Positions 31,882 to 63,182 of a stretch of 64,000 bases of DNA are shown piece after piece. Origin of the DNA: Bacteroidia bacterium (lineage in GTDB: Bacteria; Bacteroidota; Bacteroidia; M30B66). A model generated the notes under the pieces. The model saw only the letters and a list, made by a program, of their open reading frames with translations, had not been told where the DNA came from and made no database searches. The translations under genes were made by a program, and so were the position numbers. The stretch covers positions 3,424,001 through 3,488,000 of the forward strand of contig OZ257142.1 of the NCBI GenBank assembly GCA_965279035.1. The letters are read 5' to 3'. Positions within the stretch are counted from its first letter, which is position 1, and the number at the start of each line of letters is the position of its first letter.

Positions 31882-33122
31882 TGTAAGCTCCCCCGAAAAT
31901 AGTACAGTTTGAAAAAAGAATTTCTAATTTTAAAACTGTAATATGAGAAAGACAAGATTCACCCCGACGCAGATTGCAAAGATCCTTAAAGAGTTTGAAC
32001 AAGGAAAAGATGTTGAAACAATTAGCAGAGAGCATGGAGTATCGAAGGCTACTTTTTACAAGTGGCGACAACGATACGGTGGCATGGAGGCTAGTGAGTT
32101 GAAGAATATAAAACGGCTAGAAGAGGAAAATGCAAAGTTAAAGCGCATGTATACAGATTTAGCTTTAGAGCTAGATATGGCAAAGTATATAATCGAAAAA
32201 AAGCTTTAAAGCCTTGCCACAAAAGAGCGATTGTAGAAGAGCTCAAGCATCATTATCCTCATGGCATAAGCAAGGCGTGTCGTATTTTACAAACAAGCAG
32301 GAGTAGTTTAAACTATCGTTCCCAAAAGGATGATTCGTTTTTAAATGATGCTTTAAGTAAACTAAGCATTGAACACCCCAGAGAAGGCTTTTGGAAGAGT
32401 TATTATCGTTTACGCAACAAGAGTGTCAAAGTAAACCACAAACGCCTCCACAGGGTTTATAAGCAAATGGGTCTACCATTAAGACGCAAGGCAAAAAAGC
32501 GTTTGCCAGCAAGAGTAAAAGAACAAATCGTAATACCAAGTGAATTTAACCATACTTGGAGTATTGATTTTGTACATGACGTTCTCAGCAATGGTCGCAA
32601 GTTCAGATCCTTTAATGTTATAGATGATTACAATCGTGAGGTATTATTTATCGAAACAGATTATTCATTAAAAAGTAGCAGAGTAATCTGGGTGCTAAAC
32701 CACCTAATCAATAAACATGGAAAACCTAAAAAAATACGAATGGATAACGGACCTGAATTTATCGCCAAGCTTTCGAAAGAATGGAGTGAAATAAAAGAAA
32801 TAGACTTTCATTACATACAGCCTGGAAAGCCAACACAAAATGCATTGATAGAAAGATTTAATAAAACCTTTAGAGGAGGAATCCTTGATAATTATATTTT
32901 TGAATCTCTCTATGAGGTAAGAAGCATCACTGAAACATGGATGCAAGACTACAATGAAGAAAGGCCACATGATGCTTTGGGTGGCTTAAGTCCAGTGATG
33001 TATAAACGTAAAAATCAGACTCTTCTTGGCCTCCGTTCCGCTACGCTTCACTCCAGCCAAGAAGAGTTAATCAATGATAATAAATTGTAATTTAGAACCG
33101 TACTAAAAATGGGGAGCCTACA
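31882..33122 (+). mobile_element. IS3-family insertion sequence (~1241 bp)
   Basis: TG...CA ends; imperfect IRs TGTAAGCTCCCC..TAGTACAGTT / AACCGTACTA..GGGGAGCCTACA; orfA/orfB; no target duplication visible. Confidence 0.9.
31943..33090 (+). CDS. IS3 transposase OrfA (31943-32209) / OrfB joined by -1 programmed frameshift
   Basis: HTH orfA; A7G slippery site at 32196-32203; [26 protein letters not shown]. Confidence 0.9.
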
Positions 33123-33358
33123 AACTAGCAAAGGCATTTTCATTCGATTTCATTCTAGTAAAATATCAAGCAAACAAAGCCGTGAAAAATATTTCAGCTG
33201 ATTTTGACTTCTGCCCTATTCTTGGCTTATTTTGAACTTGCAAAATCTAAGGCGATTTTTTCTACTCGATTCCAGCTAAAAACAGTTTTACAAATTGCAT
33301 GAATAACTCATTTGTGCAAAATGTTAGCCGACTTTGCGGAAGAGATTCGCGTTTCTTA

Positions 33359-33484
33359 TAACGTTCCGCACACACCTGAAGAGCCAAATGAGGTGAACGG
33401 AATGCTTTAGATTAGACGAATATAACAAGAAAATCGAATGCCTCAAACTCCCGAAATGCTTGGCTTTGCTGGTGTGTGCTGTTA
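33359..33484 (-). repeat. attC-like site 1 (resident family, empty)
   Basis: TAAC-GTTCC-GCACACACC..AGCCAA...TTGGCT..GGTGTGTGC-T-GTTA; the PIN gene stop overlaps its GTTA. Confidence 0.9.
33417..33447 (-). promoter_or_regulatory. Putative Bacteroidetes promoter inside the attC-like loop (representative copy)
   Basis: Minus strand TTTG-N19-TATATTCG versus consensus TTTG-N19-21-TAnnTTTG. Confidence 0.6.
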
Positions 33485-33904
33485 GCGGATGTCACCTATC
33501 CGTAAATATGTTTCTGGAGTCATTACTGATAAACTACTTTCCTTAAAATCTTTAATGTTTCTTGTCACGATTACTTTAATCTCTTTGTCATATTGCGCTG
33601 AGAAATTCTGTATCGCATCTTCAAAATCCTTAAATTCAGAATTTAGAGCTGCTAATATCGTTTCTTTATTTATTATCGCAATATCAATCATATTAATTAA
33701 CATCTTCAGATTCTCAATGACCTTCTCGTGTTTCGCTGTCTTTCTCAAAAGATAATACACATTACTTATTATCACAGGTGTTACAAAACCTGATATAACT
33801 TTCTTTTCACATAACATCAATATTTTAGTGGCATCGTCCGAAAATGGTTTTCTGTCAAAAAAGAAGTCGAGTATTACATCTGTATCAATTAAAACTTTAT
33901 TCAT
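33482..33904 (-). CDS. PIN-domain toxin (VapC-like)
   Basis: LIDTDVILD, DFEDA, IVTRNxKDF. Confidence 0.9.
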   Translation of the reverse strand: MNKVLIDTDVILDFFFDRKPFSDDATKILMLCEKKVISGFVTPVIISNVYYLLRKTAKHEKVIENLKMLINMIDIAIINKETILAALNSEFKDFEDAIQNFSAQYDKEIKVIVTRNIKDFKESSLSVMTPETYLRIGDIR

Positions 33905-33906
33905 AC

Positions 33907-34164
33907 TTACAAATATTTTTTGGCAATTGCATCTGTAAGTTCTTTCTTGTAATCAAAATCTTTTGGTAATTTAAATGAACCTCGTAATTGCTTTACAGTT
34001 GGACTCAAATCTTTATCATCAATCTCCTTTTCATTAGTTAAAGCTTTAAGATAATTTTCTATTAGGTCAGACAGACTTCTTTCCCGTTCCCGCGCATATC
34101 TTTTAGCCTTCTCAATTATTGATTGCTCAATCGTAAGCGTTAGTTTCGTATTCATAACCTTCAT
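33907..34164 (-). CDS. Antitoxin, DUF6364-like ribbon-helix-helix
   Basis: TKLTLTI..IEKAKRYA..SLSDLIENYL; immediately upstream of the PIN gene. Confidence 0.8.
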   Translation of the reverse strand: MKVMNTKLTLTIEQSIIEKAKRYARERERSLSDLIENYLKALTNEKEIDDKDLSPTVKQLRGSFKLPKDFDYKKELTDAIAKKYL

Positions 34165-34267
34165 TTTTCACAAAAGTAATAAAATTTTCAATATACACGT
34201 GCAAATATATCCAAATGAATACGTGTCGTTTGTTGGTGATTTCCGCTAACCTTTAGACTTGCAGTCA

Positions 34268-34457
34268 AAGATTTTAGCTGATAAATTTACCATAAATAAA
34301 TGTAGTTAACCGAAAGCAGGGCGACCTATGCGCTAACAAGGATAATAGGCCTATGGAACGATATAGTGCCCTACTTTCTGGTTATTTAAGCCTCAGATAG
34401 ATATTCGGGATTCAGGCCCATTATAAAGGTTTTGAGGTACAAATAACCATTGGTTAA
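34268..34457 (+). ncRNA. Predicted IS110 bridge RNA (copy 1; 5' end approximate)
   Basis: Two stem-bounded internal loops. LTG CGCTAAC 34331-34337; RTG GGAACG(AT) 34355-34362; LDG ATAGATAT 34397-34404; RDG TAAAGG(TT) 34424-34431. Confidence 0.85.
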
Positions 34458-34480
34458 TCCGTTTTGCTAATTATAAAATT

Positions 34481-35494
34481 ATGAATTCAAACCAGAACAA
34501 CCAAAAACATTTTGTAGGAACAGATGTTTCAAAAGAAACACTTGATGTAACGATCTTTTTCAACTCCTCAATGCATTTTCATCAGCAATTTTCAAATGAC
34601 AGCAAGGGCTTTAAGCAATTGCTGAAATGGCTAGAAACCTATCCTGAATTCAGTTTTGAAAATACTTTATTCTGCATGGAACATACAGGAATTTACACTC
34701 GTCAGTTTGTTGAATTCCTCCTTTCGAAAGAAGCAAAGGTATGGATGGAGTCGGCACTGCATTTAAAGCGTTCTATGGGCATGACAAGGGGCAAAAGTGA
34801 TAAGATCGATTCACTGCGAATTGCACGCTATGCAATGACTCATCAGGACCAAGCCAGGCTCGTAAATCTTTCCAATAAAACATTGTTGCTTATCAAAGAC
34901 CTTATGAGTGCAAGAGAGCGGAGTAAAAAGGCCTACCAGTCCATAAAAGTCTCCATTGATGAAATGCAAAGAGTCGATGCAGCAACAGCAAAAGAGCTCT
35001 TGAGGATTAATAAACCAGCCCTTTCTGGATTATTGAAAAGCAAGATGGCGTTGGAAAAACGGATGATGGAATTAATAGCGATGGATCCTGAACTGAACGA
35101 GCTATTTGAGCTGGTTACTTCTGTCAAAGGTGTGGGTAATGTATTGGCAACCGAACTGATTGTTTATACACATGCATTTAAAAGAATGGATGAAGCCAAA
35201 CAACTGGCCTGCTATTGCGGAGTCGCTCCTTTTTCTCATACTTCCGGCACGAGTGTGCATGGAAGAAATGGAACTTCAAACTTTGCTAACATGGGACTTA
35301 AATCAACTTTACACTTGGCTGCACTTTCTTCAATTCGTTACGTACCTGAGCTTAAAACATATTATCAGAGGAAAGTAGCTGAGGGAAAATCCAAAATGAG
35401 CGTAATTAATGCCGTGCGGAATAAACTGTTGCAACGTGTCTTAGCAGTGGTAAAAAGAGGAACGCCTTACCAAGAAAATTATCAAGTAAATTAA
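34481..35494 (+). CDS. IS110-family DEDD recombinase
   Basis: GTDVSK, CMEHTG, KSDKIDS (DEDD RuvC-like); C-terminal YCGVAP..SGTS. Confidence 0.95.
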   Translation: MNSNQNNQKHFVGTDVSKETLDVTIFFNSSMHFHQQFSNDSKGFKQLLKWLETYPEFSFENTLFCMEHTGIYTRQFVEFLLSKEAKVWMESALHLKRSMGMTRGKSDKIDSLRIARYAMTHQDQARLVNLSNKTLLLIKDLMSARERSKKAYQSIKVSIDEMQRVDAATAKELLRINKPALSGLLKSKMALEKRMMELIAMDPELNELFELVTSVKGVGNVLATELIVYTHAFKRMDEAKQLACYCGVAPFSHTSGTSVHGRNGTSNFANMGLKSTLHLAALSSIRYVPELKTYYQRKVAEGKSKMSVINAVRNKLLQRVLAVVKRGTPYQENYQVN

Positions 35495-35514
35495 TTTGGA
35501 AAACTCATAGATAT

Positions 35515-35637
35515 CGTTCCGCACACACCTGAAGAGCCAAATGAGATGAACGAAATGCTTTATATTAGACGAATATAACAAGAAAAACGAATGCCTCATA
35601 CTCCCGAAATGCTTGGCTTTGCTGGTGTGTGCTGTTA
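35515..35637 (-). repeat. attC-like site 2 (resident family, interrupted by IS110)
   Basis: Same repeat as site 1; its TAAC lies at 34247-34250. Confidence 0.9.
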
Positions 35638-35645
35638 GCTGTAGT

Positions 35646-36287
35646 TTATTTATTACTCCAGAATTCTTCAGTTAAATAAAAAACAGTGTCAATAAAATAA
35701 AGGACATTATTTCTAGTCAACACATTTTCATCATGCAAATCTTCGAGTATAATTCCTAAATTTTGATTAAAGTAATCGTTGTTTCTAGTATTTTGAAATC
35801 CATTTGAAGTCAAAAACTCTTTTAATTGATTTAAATCTGTATTACTTGTTATTGTAACATATGATTGTTGAACAACAGCATAAAGAATTTCATTCTCCTT
35901 GGTAAATCCAAGCAATTCATATGCAGTATCTTCAAAAAAAAAATTATGAATCAACAAATTATAAAAGTAATCTCTCCAACTGCTATAATAAATTCCATCA
36001 TTTAACTTTAAAACATGATCAGAGTTTTTGAGATACACTCTTTGCTCTGCTCCTTCACTTACATACTGAGTAAAATCAATATCAGATATCCAAAGCTTAT
36101 TTTCTGAAACAAAGATTTCTAATCTCTTTGCTTCTTGTTCTTTGAATTGCTTTGAGTTTTCAATTTTTGAGCCTGGTTGCGAGCCTTTGCTAAGGTAACT
36201 GGCGACTGATTGGATAGTTGTTCCAAACCTAACTTGGCTCTTTCCTGAAATGACATCATAAAGTTCTTGTTTAAGTTGGTCTTGCAT
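35646..36287 (-). CDS. Protein kinase-like protein (polyvalent-protein kinase type)
   Basis: EGAEQRVY, VLKLN, DLHDENVL, FIDT kinase-fold motifs. Confidence 0.65.
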   Translation of the reverse strand: MQDQLKQELYDVISGKSQVRFGTTIQSVASYLSKGSQPGSKIENSKQFKEQEAKRLEIFVSENKLWISDIDFTQYVSEGAEQRVYLKNSDHVLKLNDGIYYSSWRDYFYNLLIHNFFFEDTAYELLGFTKENEILYAVVQQSYVTITSNTDLNQLKEFLTSNGFQNTRNNDYFNQNLGIILEDLHDENVLTRNNVLYFIDTVFYLTEEFWSNK

Positions 36288-36872: not shown

Positions 36873-37739
36873 TTAGTTAACCGTTGTCCAGTTGTAGATG
36901 CCGCCTCTTGAAACAAACTTTGAAAAGTCGTAGCTCATTTGCTGAATAGCAAGTCTTGCCCCGATGTCTAAAATTGGTTTGCTGTAAATGTGTCCGCCTG
37001 TTGTGTTGTCGTAAAACCTGCCTGCTGGGTCAACCATAGCATAAGAACCAGTCATTTGATTGTTGTTCTCGGGAACTATGCTTGTAATGTCCAGAAGTCC
37101 TTTGTGGTTATCAATAAAAAATTGAAATTGCTCGTTTGTGATTTTGAATTTGTCAATGTTCAAATCGTTCTGTCCTTTCATTGGCAAAACTTGGAATAGT
37201 TTCCATCGTTTTGGTTTTGCATAACGGATAAACTCGCTCAAGTTTTCGTTGCAGTTCTTGCTACTTACAACTGTATTTATTTTTAGTCCATAACCGTGTT
37301 CTTTTATTCTGTCAACAAGCGAAGTGTAGTAGTCAATTTGTAAAGGTGTCTTGCCCGAAATTGCTCTGCCGGTTTCAATGTTTGTGTTAGCGTTTAAACT
37401 GTCAATGCTTACGGAAATCCAGTCAAGGTGCTGCTGATTAGCTTGCAAAAAACTGTCAGTAAGTTTACTGCCGTTGCTCACAATCATTGTTGTAAGTCCT
37501 GCTTGCTTGGCGGTTGTAATTAAATCGGGAAGCCAAGGGCAAAGAGTTGGTTCGCCTCCTGCGAAAGTGATTTTCTCAAAGCCAATTTCAGCAAGATGAA
37601 GGACTACTTCAATTGCTTGTTCTTTTGGTAAATGTCCTTTTGGTAAAATGCTTTGCTTAACATCTTGAAAGGTTGCGAAGCAAAACTTGCAACGCATGTT
37701 GCATGGCTCCCATAAATGAAAATTGACTGCTGGAATCAT
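36873..37739 (-). CDS. pVip: Prokaryotic viperin (radical SAM antiviral nucleotide dehydratase)
   Basis: VNFHLWEPCNMRCKFCFATF, KITFAGGEPTL, KINTVV, RWKLFQVL, SYAMVDPAGRF, RGGxYxW. Confidence 0.92.
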   Translation of the reverse strand: MIPAVNFHLWEPCNMRCKFCFATFQDVKQSILPKGHLPKEQAIEVVLHLAEIGFEKITFAGGEPTLCPWLPDLITTAKQAGLTTMIVSNGSKLTDSFLQANQQHLDWISVSIDSLNANTNIETGRAISGKTPLQIDYYTSLVDRIKEHGYGLKINTVVSSKNCNENLSEFIRYAKPKRWKLFQVLPMKGQNDLNIDKFKITNEQFQFFIDNHKGLLDITSIVPENNNQMTGSYAMVDPAGRFYDNTTGGHIYSKPILDIGARLAIQQMSYDFSKFVSRGGIYNWTTVN

Positions 37740-41579: not shown

Positions 41580-41960
41580 TTTGATGCGCGCCAAGTCCGA
41601 TTCAGTTCTAGCAAAGTTTCCAAGCAAAAAAAGCGACTTGAATACACATTCTGAAATAAGGCCAAAAACCATTCTGCAAATATTCTGTGTTTGTCGCCAT
41701 CAATTCTCTAGTTGATTTCATCAATCCATTAATTTGATTTTATCAGCAGTTCATTCCAGGCATATGGCGACAAACTTTTCAAAAACCTCTCAAATGGTTT
41801 TTGCCTATCCCTCAAATGCCGAGCTTTTTTTATCAAAAACGATTAGACATTCGTTTATTACTTTATTGTTTCCTGATAGCCGAAACTTCCTTTCGCCTTT
41901 AATGAATTATCTGACCACAATGCGAATGGCGAGTTTGGAAAATTTCGCGTTTCAAATAAC
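41576..41960. other. Non-coding structured cassette, copy A
   Basis: Ends GTTATTTGA/TCAAATAAC; no self-contained ORF >=60 aa; nested inverted repeats. Confidence 0.75.
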
Positions 41961-48952: not shown

Positions 48953-49170
48953 AATACGACATAAAATTCATGAAACTTTGTCTTTTCTCGAGGAATGGAA
49001 ACGTTATTTGGTTGATTAAATTGCTCATGCATGGTTTAATTATTTTTACGGTCATATCTTGCAAAGTATAGTTCCTTGAGTTGATAATATTTCCAAAAGA
49101 AGAGATATCTAATACTCCGAATGTTCTCTGCTTGTTTCTATTTGAGTCAACAGTTGTTCTTGTGGCTAAC

Positions 49171-63057: not shown

Positions 63058-63182
63058 TAACGTTCCGTGGCTTTGCGATGTGCGGAATAGATTAACGTAA
63101 TGCCTCAGATTAGACGAATCTACCCAACAATACGGATGATTCAAAGTAGCTGAAATGCCCGCATATAGCAAAGCCACTGTTA
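63058..63182 (-). repeat. attC-like site 16 (variant stem, empty)
   Basis: TAAC-GTTCC-GTGGCTTTGCGATGTGCGG...CCGCATATAGCAAAGCCAC-T-GTTA. Confidence 0.9.

Follow-up and report, generated by a model that had tools for sequence, protein, structure and literature searches.

Right-guide bases cross-matched at position 8 in the bridge RNA of an IS110-family element found in attC-like repeats: a probable variant of the IS621 handshake

Introduction

The closest described system to the element analysed here is IS621 of E. coli, whose bridge RNA and handshake guides have been reported by Durrant et al. 2024 (PMC11208160), Hiraizumi et al. 2024 (PMC11208158) and Hiraizumi et al. 2026 (PMC13626964), papers on which we draw for their text on guide architecture and handshake pairing. 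How efficiently bridge recombination proceeds, and in which direction, is known to be controlled by handshake pairing, which also serves as a design rule for genome editing. In the IS621 RNA's target-binding loop, as laid out in the text of PMC11208158, the left target guide (LTG) occupies nucleotides 50-58 (9 nt, A50-U58, reading target positions t1-t9) and is followed by a 1-nt linker (U59), a stem-loop and a 2-nt linker; nucleotides 74-80 then read t14-t8, the handshake guide (HSG) 81-82 takes up donor positions 7 and 6 after exchange, and a 4-nt linker leads back into the stem. The donor-binding loop is described in the same text as carrying a left donor guide (LDG) at 123-130 (8 nt, A123-C130, reading donor positions d1-d8) together with the right donor guide (RDG) at 157-165 (9 nt, down to d8), with HSG 166-167, a 1-nt linker (U168) and the stem at its 3' end. 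The handshake guides of IS621 accordingly pair with positions 7 and 6 (PMC11208158).

When more handshake pairs are formed after strand exchange than before it, the IS621 reaction is reported to be favoured and its reverse to be hindered (PMC11208158, PMC13626964), and the wild-type system has one handshake pair before exchange and three after it (PMC13626964). According to the text of PMC11208158, pairing at positions 6-7 before exchange (tested at position 7) inhibits exchange, the bottom strands are cut between the complements of positions 5 and 6, and positions 6-9 then make up an overlap of four bases, where donor and target need not agree; what becomes of the mismatches is left open by its authors. 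A 2026 preprint argues for a single-strand, copy-and-paste behaviour of IS621 (10.64898/2026.08.31.748434). A second group of relevance, the IS1111-attC group (ISKpn4, ISPst6), goes back to Tetu & Holmes 2008 and Post & Hall 2009, as cited in PMC11187229 and PMC11208160.

Here we describe an insertion sequence present in a window of Bacteroidia DNA (the window being the whole stretch analysed, 64,000 nucleotides in length). A sequence-only reading of the window had proposed that the bases 3' of each right guide of an apparent bridge RNA match the insertion junctions, and act as handshake guides in the manner of IS621.

Results

The window was found to contain six copies of the insertion sequence, 100% identical over the 300 bases compared, with left ends (TAAC plus left end) that start at 34247, 39377, 42660, 49167, 54314 and 60866. 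The encoded recombinase (Table 1) matched the Pfam families PF01548 (DEDD_Tnp_IS110, E 7e-19) and PF02371 (Transposase_20, E 2e-19), and could be aligned to the IS621 transposase 8wt6 (E 2.7e-26) and to ISCro4 9t56 (E 8.2e-26). Its residues D15, E67, D107, D110 and S255 stand opposite D13, E62, D104, D107 and S243 of the 8wt6 chain, which we take to be D11, E60, D102, D105 and S241 of IS621, on the assumption of a two-residue tag (328 versus 326 aa). The D, E, D, D and S residues of the recombinase were invariant across 19 homologues.

The identical recombinase is recorded as 28 member sequences on one 4.2-Mb contig, and in four public runs the word depth of the element contig was roughly tenfold that of the flank; the element therefore appears to be high-copy genome-wide. 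A repeat contig spanning 34247-35528 (copy 1 region) was present among the assembled contigs of public runs. The assembled contigs of four public runs, all of one organism, showed no joints over 34150-35650; as only contigs were searched, this speaks neither for nor against a circular junction of right end (RE) to left end (LE) or an excised site.

In copy 1, joining RE to LE would place TTTG (35495-35498) 20 nt upstream of TAGACTTG (34254-34261), an arrangement that constitutes a candidate junction promoter. Among relatives the left end reads TAGATTTG or TAGTTTTG, and a TTG/TTTG motif is kept in the right end. The Bacteroidetes promoter consensus has TTTG at -33 and TAnnTTTG at -7, and the end motifs resemble it to a degree that is suggestive at most. 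A predicted junction promoter like that of IS621 could explain the strong conservation of the donor ends.

All six copies sit inside one repeat family, at about 135 nt per repeat, which occurs 12 times from 33.3 kb to the window end in a single orientation throughout (12 matches to the conserved repeat centre, 0.15 being expected). The repeat centres lie at 33404, 35557, 40687, 42002, 43970, 46939, 47442, 50477, 51337, 55624, 62176 and 63102 (array within 33346-64000). The repeats have complementary outer arms (YTAAC / GTTAGC or GTTATR) as well as inner arms, they separate units of one or two genes, and they look like integron attC sites, a label taken from their form alone and carrying no database assignment. 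An empty repeat folded as single-stranded DNA gave a long imperfect hairpin (z = -1.5, not significant alone). By appearance the array, which runs off the window end, is an integron cassette array or an integrase-less attC cluster; no integron integrase was found among the seven neighbouring ORFs scanned, which carries little weight as the array continues past the window end. The product of one cassette-like unit, at 36873-37739 on the reverse strand, is an antiviral radical SAM protein of the prokaryotic viperin family (E 3.6e-96 to NCBIfam NF038283, above its cut-off); judged by its annotation, this unit would represent a cassette-borne defence gene. A 207-aa ORF at 32467-33090 (+), immediately ahead of the array's first repeat, is probably a fragment, its match to IS3-family transposases being confined to their C-terminal part (profile positions 197-368 of 369) and falling below the curated cut-off.

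Six of the 12 repeats are occupied by the element and six are empty. Every empty site (6/6) reads TAAC followed by G(T/C)TCC; the occupied sites read ..YTAAC then CTTTAG.. on the left and ..ATAGATATC then GTTCC.. on the right, and the flanks of the six copies diverge 5' of TAAC. From these empty and occupied sequences it follows that the uninserted target is ..TAAC / GTTCC and that the donor, RE joined to LE, is ..ATAGATATC / CTTTAG... C9 is common to donor and target, and the preceding base is A in the target and T in the donor; over positions 6-9 the target is T6 A7 A8 C9 and the donor T6 A7 T8 C9, with position 8 as the sole difference.

To describe the RNA across relatives, homologues of the recombinase were collected (4,701 proteins at E ≤ 1e-20) and one genome per species was scanned, giving 556 encoding loci of which 80, all Bacteroidota, were kept. 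A covariance model, R1, built from the window and seven close relatives with stems only, matched at six places in the window and, among the 80 related loci, gave 74 hits in 73, always just upstream of the recombinase gene. Compensatory changes were seen at 30/30 stem pairs, and 89.8% of cells were paired compared with 62.3% when shuffled and ≤46.5% when the partners were slid, figures from an alignment that was fitted to the R1 model and so biased toward its structure. A scan of 33800-35900 against Rfam at E up to 1 returned no family match. RNAalifold, run on eight close sequences, paired the guide regions together (for example UAU 34327-29 with AUA 34361-63) in a helix that is broken in 3/8 of them, and the stems-only structure was preferred.

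Table 1. Positions in the window of the element, its bridge RNA and the sites that it occupies or could occupy
Feature	Position	Strand	Details
IS110-family element, copy 1	34251..35515	+	1,265 bp; shared C9 makes each boundary ambiguous by one base
IS110-family DEDD/Ser recombinase	34481..35494	+	337 aa; Pfam PF01548, PF02371
Bridge RNA, target-binding and donor-binding loops within a closing stem	34303..34460	+	covariance model R1, 176.6 bits
LTG UGCGCUAAC	34329..34337	+	sense of t1-t9, pairs with bottom strand; includes the target's own A8 and C9; matches 8/9 positions at copy 1
Target loop, 3' side, AU-GGAAC-G-A-UA-UAGU	34353-34367	+	15 nt
Right target guide (RTG) GGAAC	34355..34359	+	pairs with t14-t10 (GTTCC, 35516-35520)
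Complement of position 9 (G), target loop	34360..34360	+	pairs with C9 of donor and target
Complement of position 8 (A), target loop	34361..34361	+	mismatches target A8 (34249), pairs donor T8 (35514); discriminating, handshake-like
Equivalents of HSG 81-82 (UA), target loop	34362..34363	+	pair A7/T6 of donor and target equally
Linker UAGU before basal stem	34364..34367	+	4 nt; U34364 is the tenth base of the 10-mer in the sequence-only reading
LDG AUAGAUAU	34397..34404	+	sense of d1-d8 (35507-35514)
Donor loop, 3' side, AU-UA-UAAAG-G-U-UU	34420-34432	+	
RDG UAAAG	34424..34428	+	pairs with d14-d10 (CTTTA, 34251-34255)
Complement of position 9 (G), donor loop	34429..34429	+	
Complement of position 8 (U), donor loop	34430..34430	+	mismatches donor T8, pairs target A8 (34249); discriminating, handshake-like
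Equivalents of HSG 166-167 (UU), donor loop	34431..34432	+	U34431 pairs A7 of both substrates; U34432 pairs neither T6
Left target t1-t9 (TCCGCTAAC), left junction of copy 1	34242..34250	+	t6-t9 TAAC; t8 is A34249, t7 is A34248
Right junction	35507..35520	+	d1-d8 ATAGATAT 35507-14, shared C9 35515, right target GTTCC 35516-20
Empty attC-like repeat site, one of six	33350..33492	.	uninserted target TAAC-G
Other five empty repeat sites	near 41957, 46893, 47397, 51293, 63058	.	uninserted target TAAC-G

Across the loci the RTG 5-mer tracks the right flank (GTTCC, GGTCT, GTTTG, GTTTT, GGCCC, GAGGA, AGGGC, AAATA and others), the LDG 8-mer equals the right end where the junction was found, and the LTG resembles the left flank across the family; in most loci having a right junction, the RTG 5-mer and the LDG 8-mer showed 0-1 mismatch to the junctions. 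In one close relative (L001, 3440-3520) the right end, ATAGATAATCGGG, is mismatched to its own right target guide, and another (L002) is without a recognisable right end downstream of the gene; both copies may have decayed or been rearranged. The assignment of the RNA as a bridge RNA, made in the sequence-only reading, is borne out by the homology of the recombinase to IS621, by the covarying pairs of the two-loop RNA and by guides that covary with the flanks in 73 related loci. Judged on these features, the element is to be regarded as a genuine bridge-RNA IS110 system with a DEDD/Ser recombinase. The features of an IS110-group bridge system that were found are the DEDD plus Ser recombinase, the two-loop RNA upstream of the gene and the covarying guides; a core dinucleotide common to donor and target, with which all four guides pair, was absent, the core being AC in the target and TC in the donor.

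Within the window, the LTG matches the left flanks of the six copies at 8, 8, 8, 6, 4 and 5 of 9 positions, and the empty site at 63058 is matched at 5/5 positions by the RTG and at 7/9 by the LTG. The insertions at 49167, 54314 and 60866, with LTG matches of only 6, 4 and 5 of 9, nevertheless have the full TAAC and an RTG match of 4-5/5. Insertion thus seems, from these site sequences, to depend mostly on the right half-site plus TAAC, and the weak-LTG insertions are reminiscent of the 'half-match' behaviour reported for IS621.

The sides of the two loops agree with those of IS621 in length, nucleotide for nucleotide, as far as the IS621 layout is given in its published description. In the target loop an LTG of 9 nt with a 1-nt linker is found on one side and a 2-nt linker, 7 nt (t14-t8), two HSG bases and a 4-nt linker on the other; in the donor loop the LDG of 8 nt is faced by an RDG of 9 nt, two HSG bases and a 1-nt linker, and base 34433 is unpaired in 44/66 distinct rows, like the U168 linker of IS621. 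Two bases 3' of the core complement are thus present in the RTG and RDG arms alike (34362-63 and 34431-32), at the spacing to the stems described for IS621. As loop spacing is identical to that of IS621, G34360 and G34429 are assigned to position 9, A34361 and U34430 to position 8, and 34362-63 and 34431-32 to the HSG equivalents. By the same spacing the dinucleotides 34361-62 and 34430-31, which had been put forward as handshake guides of the IS621 type, turn out to be complements of positions 8 and 7 and not of 7 and 6, one step closer to the right guide than in IS621.

An alternative placing of the core was also tried and rejected. A TA core (target CCGC-TA-TCGTTCC) needs no mismatch, but it requires TAT targets and 6/6 empty sites read TAA; it would leave the RDG mismatched to its own core; and its targets, TATCGTTCC, are absent from the window outside the element's own right junctions, bar two sites in unrelated coding contexts (TATCGTT[CT]C was found at the six right junctions and at these two sites).

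The matches to the junctions on which the sequence-only reading was founded are exact, and are present in all six copies. The extended right target guide GGAACGATAT (34355-34364) is the reverse complement of the right junction ATATCGTTCC (35511-35520), and the extended right donor guide TAAAGGTT (34424-34431) is that of the left junction AACCTTTA (34248-34255); the reverse complement of TATCGTTCC is present once in each bridge-RNA copy, which makes six occurrences within the window. The longest contiguous matches of the four guides (7, 8, 8 and 10 nt) all fall on integrated junctions.

Counted over positions 6-9, the target loop (GAUA) forms three pairs and the donor loop (GUUU) two with their own substrates before exchange, 5 in total; with the partner segments after exchange they form four and three, 7 in total. 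Both gained pairs are at position 8 (A34361:T35514 and U34430:A34249), whereas U34362, A34363 and U34431 pair with either partner and U34432 with neither. The proposal that the bases 3' of the right guides pair with the partner DNA only after exchange is consequently upheld for A34361 and U34430, which lie directly 3' of the 6-nt right guides, and fails for U34362, A34363 and U34431, which pair with their own DNA equally. A handshake in the strict sense, pairing positions 6-7 of the non-cognate and not of the cognate top strand, was not seen in the window, where t6-7 and d6-7 are both TA; since donor equals target there, the canonical handshake positions contribute nothing. The bias toward insertion that had been predicted would still be expected, with the rise from 5 to 7 pairs over positions 6-9 having the direction that favours insertion in IS621, as reported in the handshake text of PMC13626964. 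By arithmetic, both position-8 bases would complement the partner DNA by chance about once in 16, and the junction-specific part of the match, taken alone within the window, is small; it is family-wide conservation and covariation that raise the observation above chance.

Both junctions could be located in 55 of 79 rows, which gave 42 distinct configurations (L069 was dropped, its target loop being unaligned, and L068, with a linker one base shorter, was kept apart). Position 9 is C in all 42. At position 8, target and donor differ in 39/42 configurations. The target-loop base is Watson-Crick to d8 in 38/39 of these (36 without pairing to their own target, 2 with a wobble), the exception being L012, whose right end has a G at d8 that neither guide base pairs with. 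In the donor loop, Watson-Crick pairing of the base to t8 is seen in 35/39, with three wobbles and one unpaired case; the latter, L059, fits only with the donor-loop register shifted by one base, and in L057 and L066 the donor-loop U makes a wobble to t8 = G and a Watson-Crick pair to its own d8 = A. A further exception is L062/L063, where the site has G and the LTG has A. Position 7 was informative in 20/42 configurations, where the target-loop base pairs with the donor in 13/20 and with its own target only in 7/20, and the donor-loop base pairs with the target only in 18/20 and, in 2/20, wobbles to the target with a Watson-Crick pair to its own donor. Position 6, the second handshake base, differs in 16/42 configurations and gave no consistent pairing signal in either loop. 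Covariation with the junctions of homologues, the absence of which had been named beforehand as a possible refutation, is therefore seen at position 8, where it is strongest, and at position 7, but not at position 6.

The tenth base of the extended target guide, U34364, pairs with A35511, yet it belongs to the 4-nt linker and is not conserved. The family-wide form of this linker is T/C/A-A/G-G-N; among close relatives it differs, with d5 constant as A. At 34363-64 the nine closest relatives have AT (four), TA (two), TT (one) or TC (two), and the right end is ATAGATAT in 7/7 of the closest relatives with a right junction found; the last two bases of the 10-mer, varying while the right end is constant, thus carry no family signal.

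Changes at position 8 were placed on a tree of the recombinase (61 distinct proteins, FastTree, midpoint root, without support values). Two lineages (L070; L065/L079/L080/L068) have T at t8 and, in each case, A as the donor-loop base; two (L068; L057/L066) have A at d8 and, again in each case, U as the target-loop base. L068 is a full reciprocal swap relative to the window, with target AATC, donor ATAC, target loop G-U-A-A and donor loop G-A-U-U. The independent evidence amounts to about four compensated co-changes, as most of the 39 configurations share one inherited state (A/T).

Discussion

The junction matches noted in the sequence-only reading have been confirmed, their interpretation was partly right, and what emerges is a variant of a known mechanism. 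On the observed sequences, architecture and conservation, we consider it probable that the bridge RNA of this IS110-family insertion sequence, which inserts into attC-like repeats, has cross-matched right-guide bases at position 8 that favour insertion, with cleavage, transfer and direction taken over from IS621. By homology to IS621, each right guide would be made up of five bases (14-10), one base for C9, one for position 8 and two handshake-position bases (7 and 6). The left guides carry their own substrate's base at position 8, and the right guides are cross-matched. The top strands would be cut 3' of position 9, by IS621 analogy, and the released 3' segments (positions 6-9) would each move to the other loop, where each loop would gain one Watson-Crick pair at position 8, taking the total from 5 to 7. 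A gain of two pairs would favour the forward exchange, that is insertion, and disfavour reversal on integrated junctions; the same net gain after top-strand exchange can be counted for wild-type IS621 from its published handshake pairs.

A four-base overlap of the IS621 kind would here hold a single difference, at position 8. In the six copies, as in every relative examined, both junctions are of the top-strand version (left TAAC, right TATC). Such uniformity is consistent with a route by which the top-strand product alone is passed on, and top-strand inheritance would be in line with the copy-and-paste view of IS621 argued in the 2026 preprint (10.64898/2026.08.31.748434). The window element has three pre-exchange pairs at positions 6-7, yet it has multiplied, and for this reason the rules of IS621 may not transfer directly: either the pre-exchange inhibition is weaker here, or the gain at position 8 suffices. 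A broader proposal, to which we would give about even weight, is that in this Bacteroidota clade the shared core has shrunk to the single C and position 8 has become a programmable handshake position, the right guides being programmed to the partner's position 8 and the left guides to that of their own substrate.

Three other explanations of the cross-match were weighed. The right guides might not read position 8 at all, and the cross-complementarity would then be a tolerated coincidence without a role in strand exchange. We judge this unlikely, even though the discriminating signal in the window is one base per loop, to be expected about once in 16 by chance, and one inherited state is common to most family members; the first core position of IS621 is, moreover, described as less conserved and without protein contact (PMC11208158). 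Recombinases of as little as about 42% identity still show the state, which has undergone compensated change in four lineages, including the reciprocal swap in L068, and a base fixed by a protein contact should be identical in the two pseudo-symmetric loops, where A is found in one and U in the other.

It is also quite improbable, in our view, that the extended complementarity was selected for recognition of integrated junctions, in excision or copy-out from the chromosome, and not for driving insertion. Maximal handshake pairing before exchange is inhibitory in IS621 according to the text of PMC11208158 and PMC13626964, so that full pairing on the junctions should hinder excision, and the 2026 preprint reports that IS621 excision is independent of target-side complementarity (10.64898/2026.08.31.748434). 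What such junction recognition does account for is that all four guides have their longest matches (7, 8, 8 and 10 nt) on integrated junctions, and it has a parallel in the IS621 excision complex, in which the RTG is described as pairing with the core and RT of the right junction, and the RDG with the core and RD of the left junction (PMC13626964).

Very improbable is a mirrored arrangement with TATC as the true target and ..ATA-AC-CTTTA as the donor, in which position 8 would be paired by the right guides on their own substrates, as it is in IS621, and the left guides would be the cross-matched ones: integrated junctions alone cannot place the crossover within TA[A/T]C, and the RTG would pair with seven contiguous bases of its own target, but 6/6 empty sites have TAAC then G and none TATC then G, the far arm of every repeat carries GTTA, complementary to TAAC, the LTG (UAAC) and LDG (AUAU) are the sense of their own substrates under a TAAC target, and the two further occurrences of TATCGTT[CT]C are in unrelated coding contexts.

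If the reading that we prefer, of right guides cross-matched at position 8, is extended to a core of a single C with a programmable position 8, donor and target would not have to share a core dinucleotide. The six copies, the six empty sites and the 73 related loci provide a well-controlled natural data set for testing the model.

Among described systems, the window element is most like IS621, as that system is presented in its main published accounts. It has a homologous DEDD/Ser recombinase, a left-end RNA with two internal loops and the same guide, linker and handshake spacing; its left guides read the bottom strand and its right guides the top strand; and the bases 3' of its right guides complement the partner DNA, the pairing increasing by two base pairs once the top strands have been exchanged. 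In IS621 the core is CT in donor and target alike and all four guides pair with it, positions 6-7 being those that discriminate. Unlike IS621, the window element shares only C9 between donor and target, is discriminated at position 8 (target A, donor T) and has identical positions 6-7, and its invariant core base is C, not T as in IS621. The design rules set out for IS622 (Perry et al., bioRxiv 10.1101/2025.05.14.653916) hold the shared handshake logic as a design principle, and demand identical cores together with non-matching positions 6-7; the window element breaks both rules, and has still multiplied. A widespread natural clade that breaks both and has clearly been mobile suggests that the identical-core constraint may be relaxable to one base, and that position 8 in the pair of right guides may offer a further means of biasing insertion versus excision.

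Members of the IS1111-attC group, also of the IS110/IS1111 superfamily, insert at one end of integron attC sites and in one orientation (PMC11187229), much as the window element does in its attC-like repeats. Their guide RNA (seekRNA) is described as lying downstream of the gene (PMC11187229), whereas that of the window element lies upstream, in the IS110-group layout. In the text on handshake pairing in the primary bridge-recombinase papers, we found no description of non-identical cores with cross-matched right guides, and the covariation maps in Extended Data Fig. 7 of PMC11208158 may already show the signal. We would describe the element as carrying a modified version of the known handshake mechanism, its discriminating base displaced into the core by one position relative to IS621.
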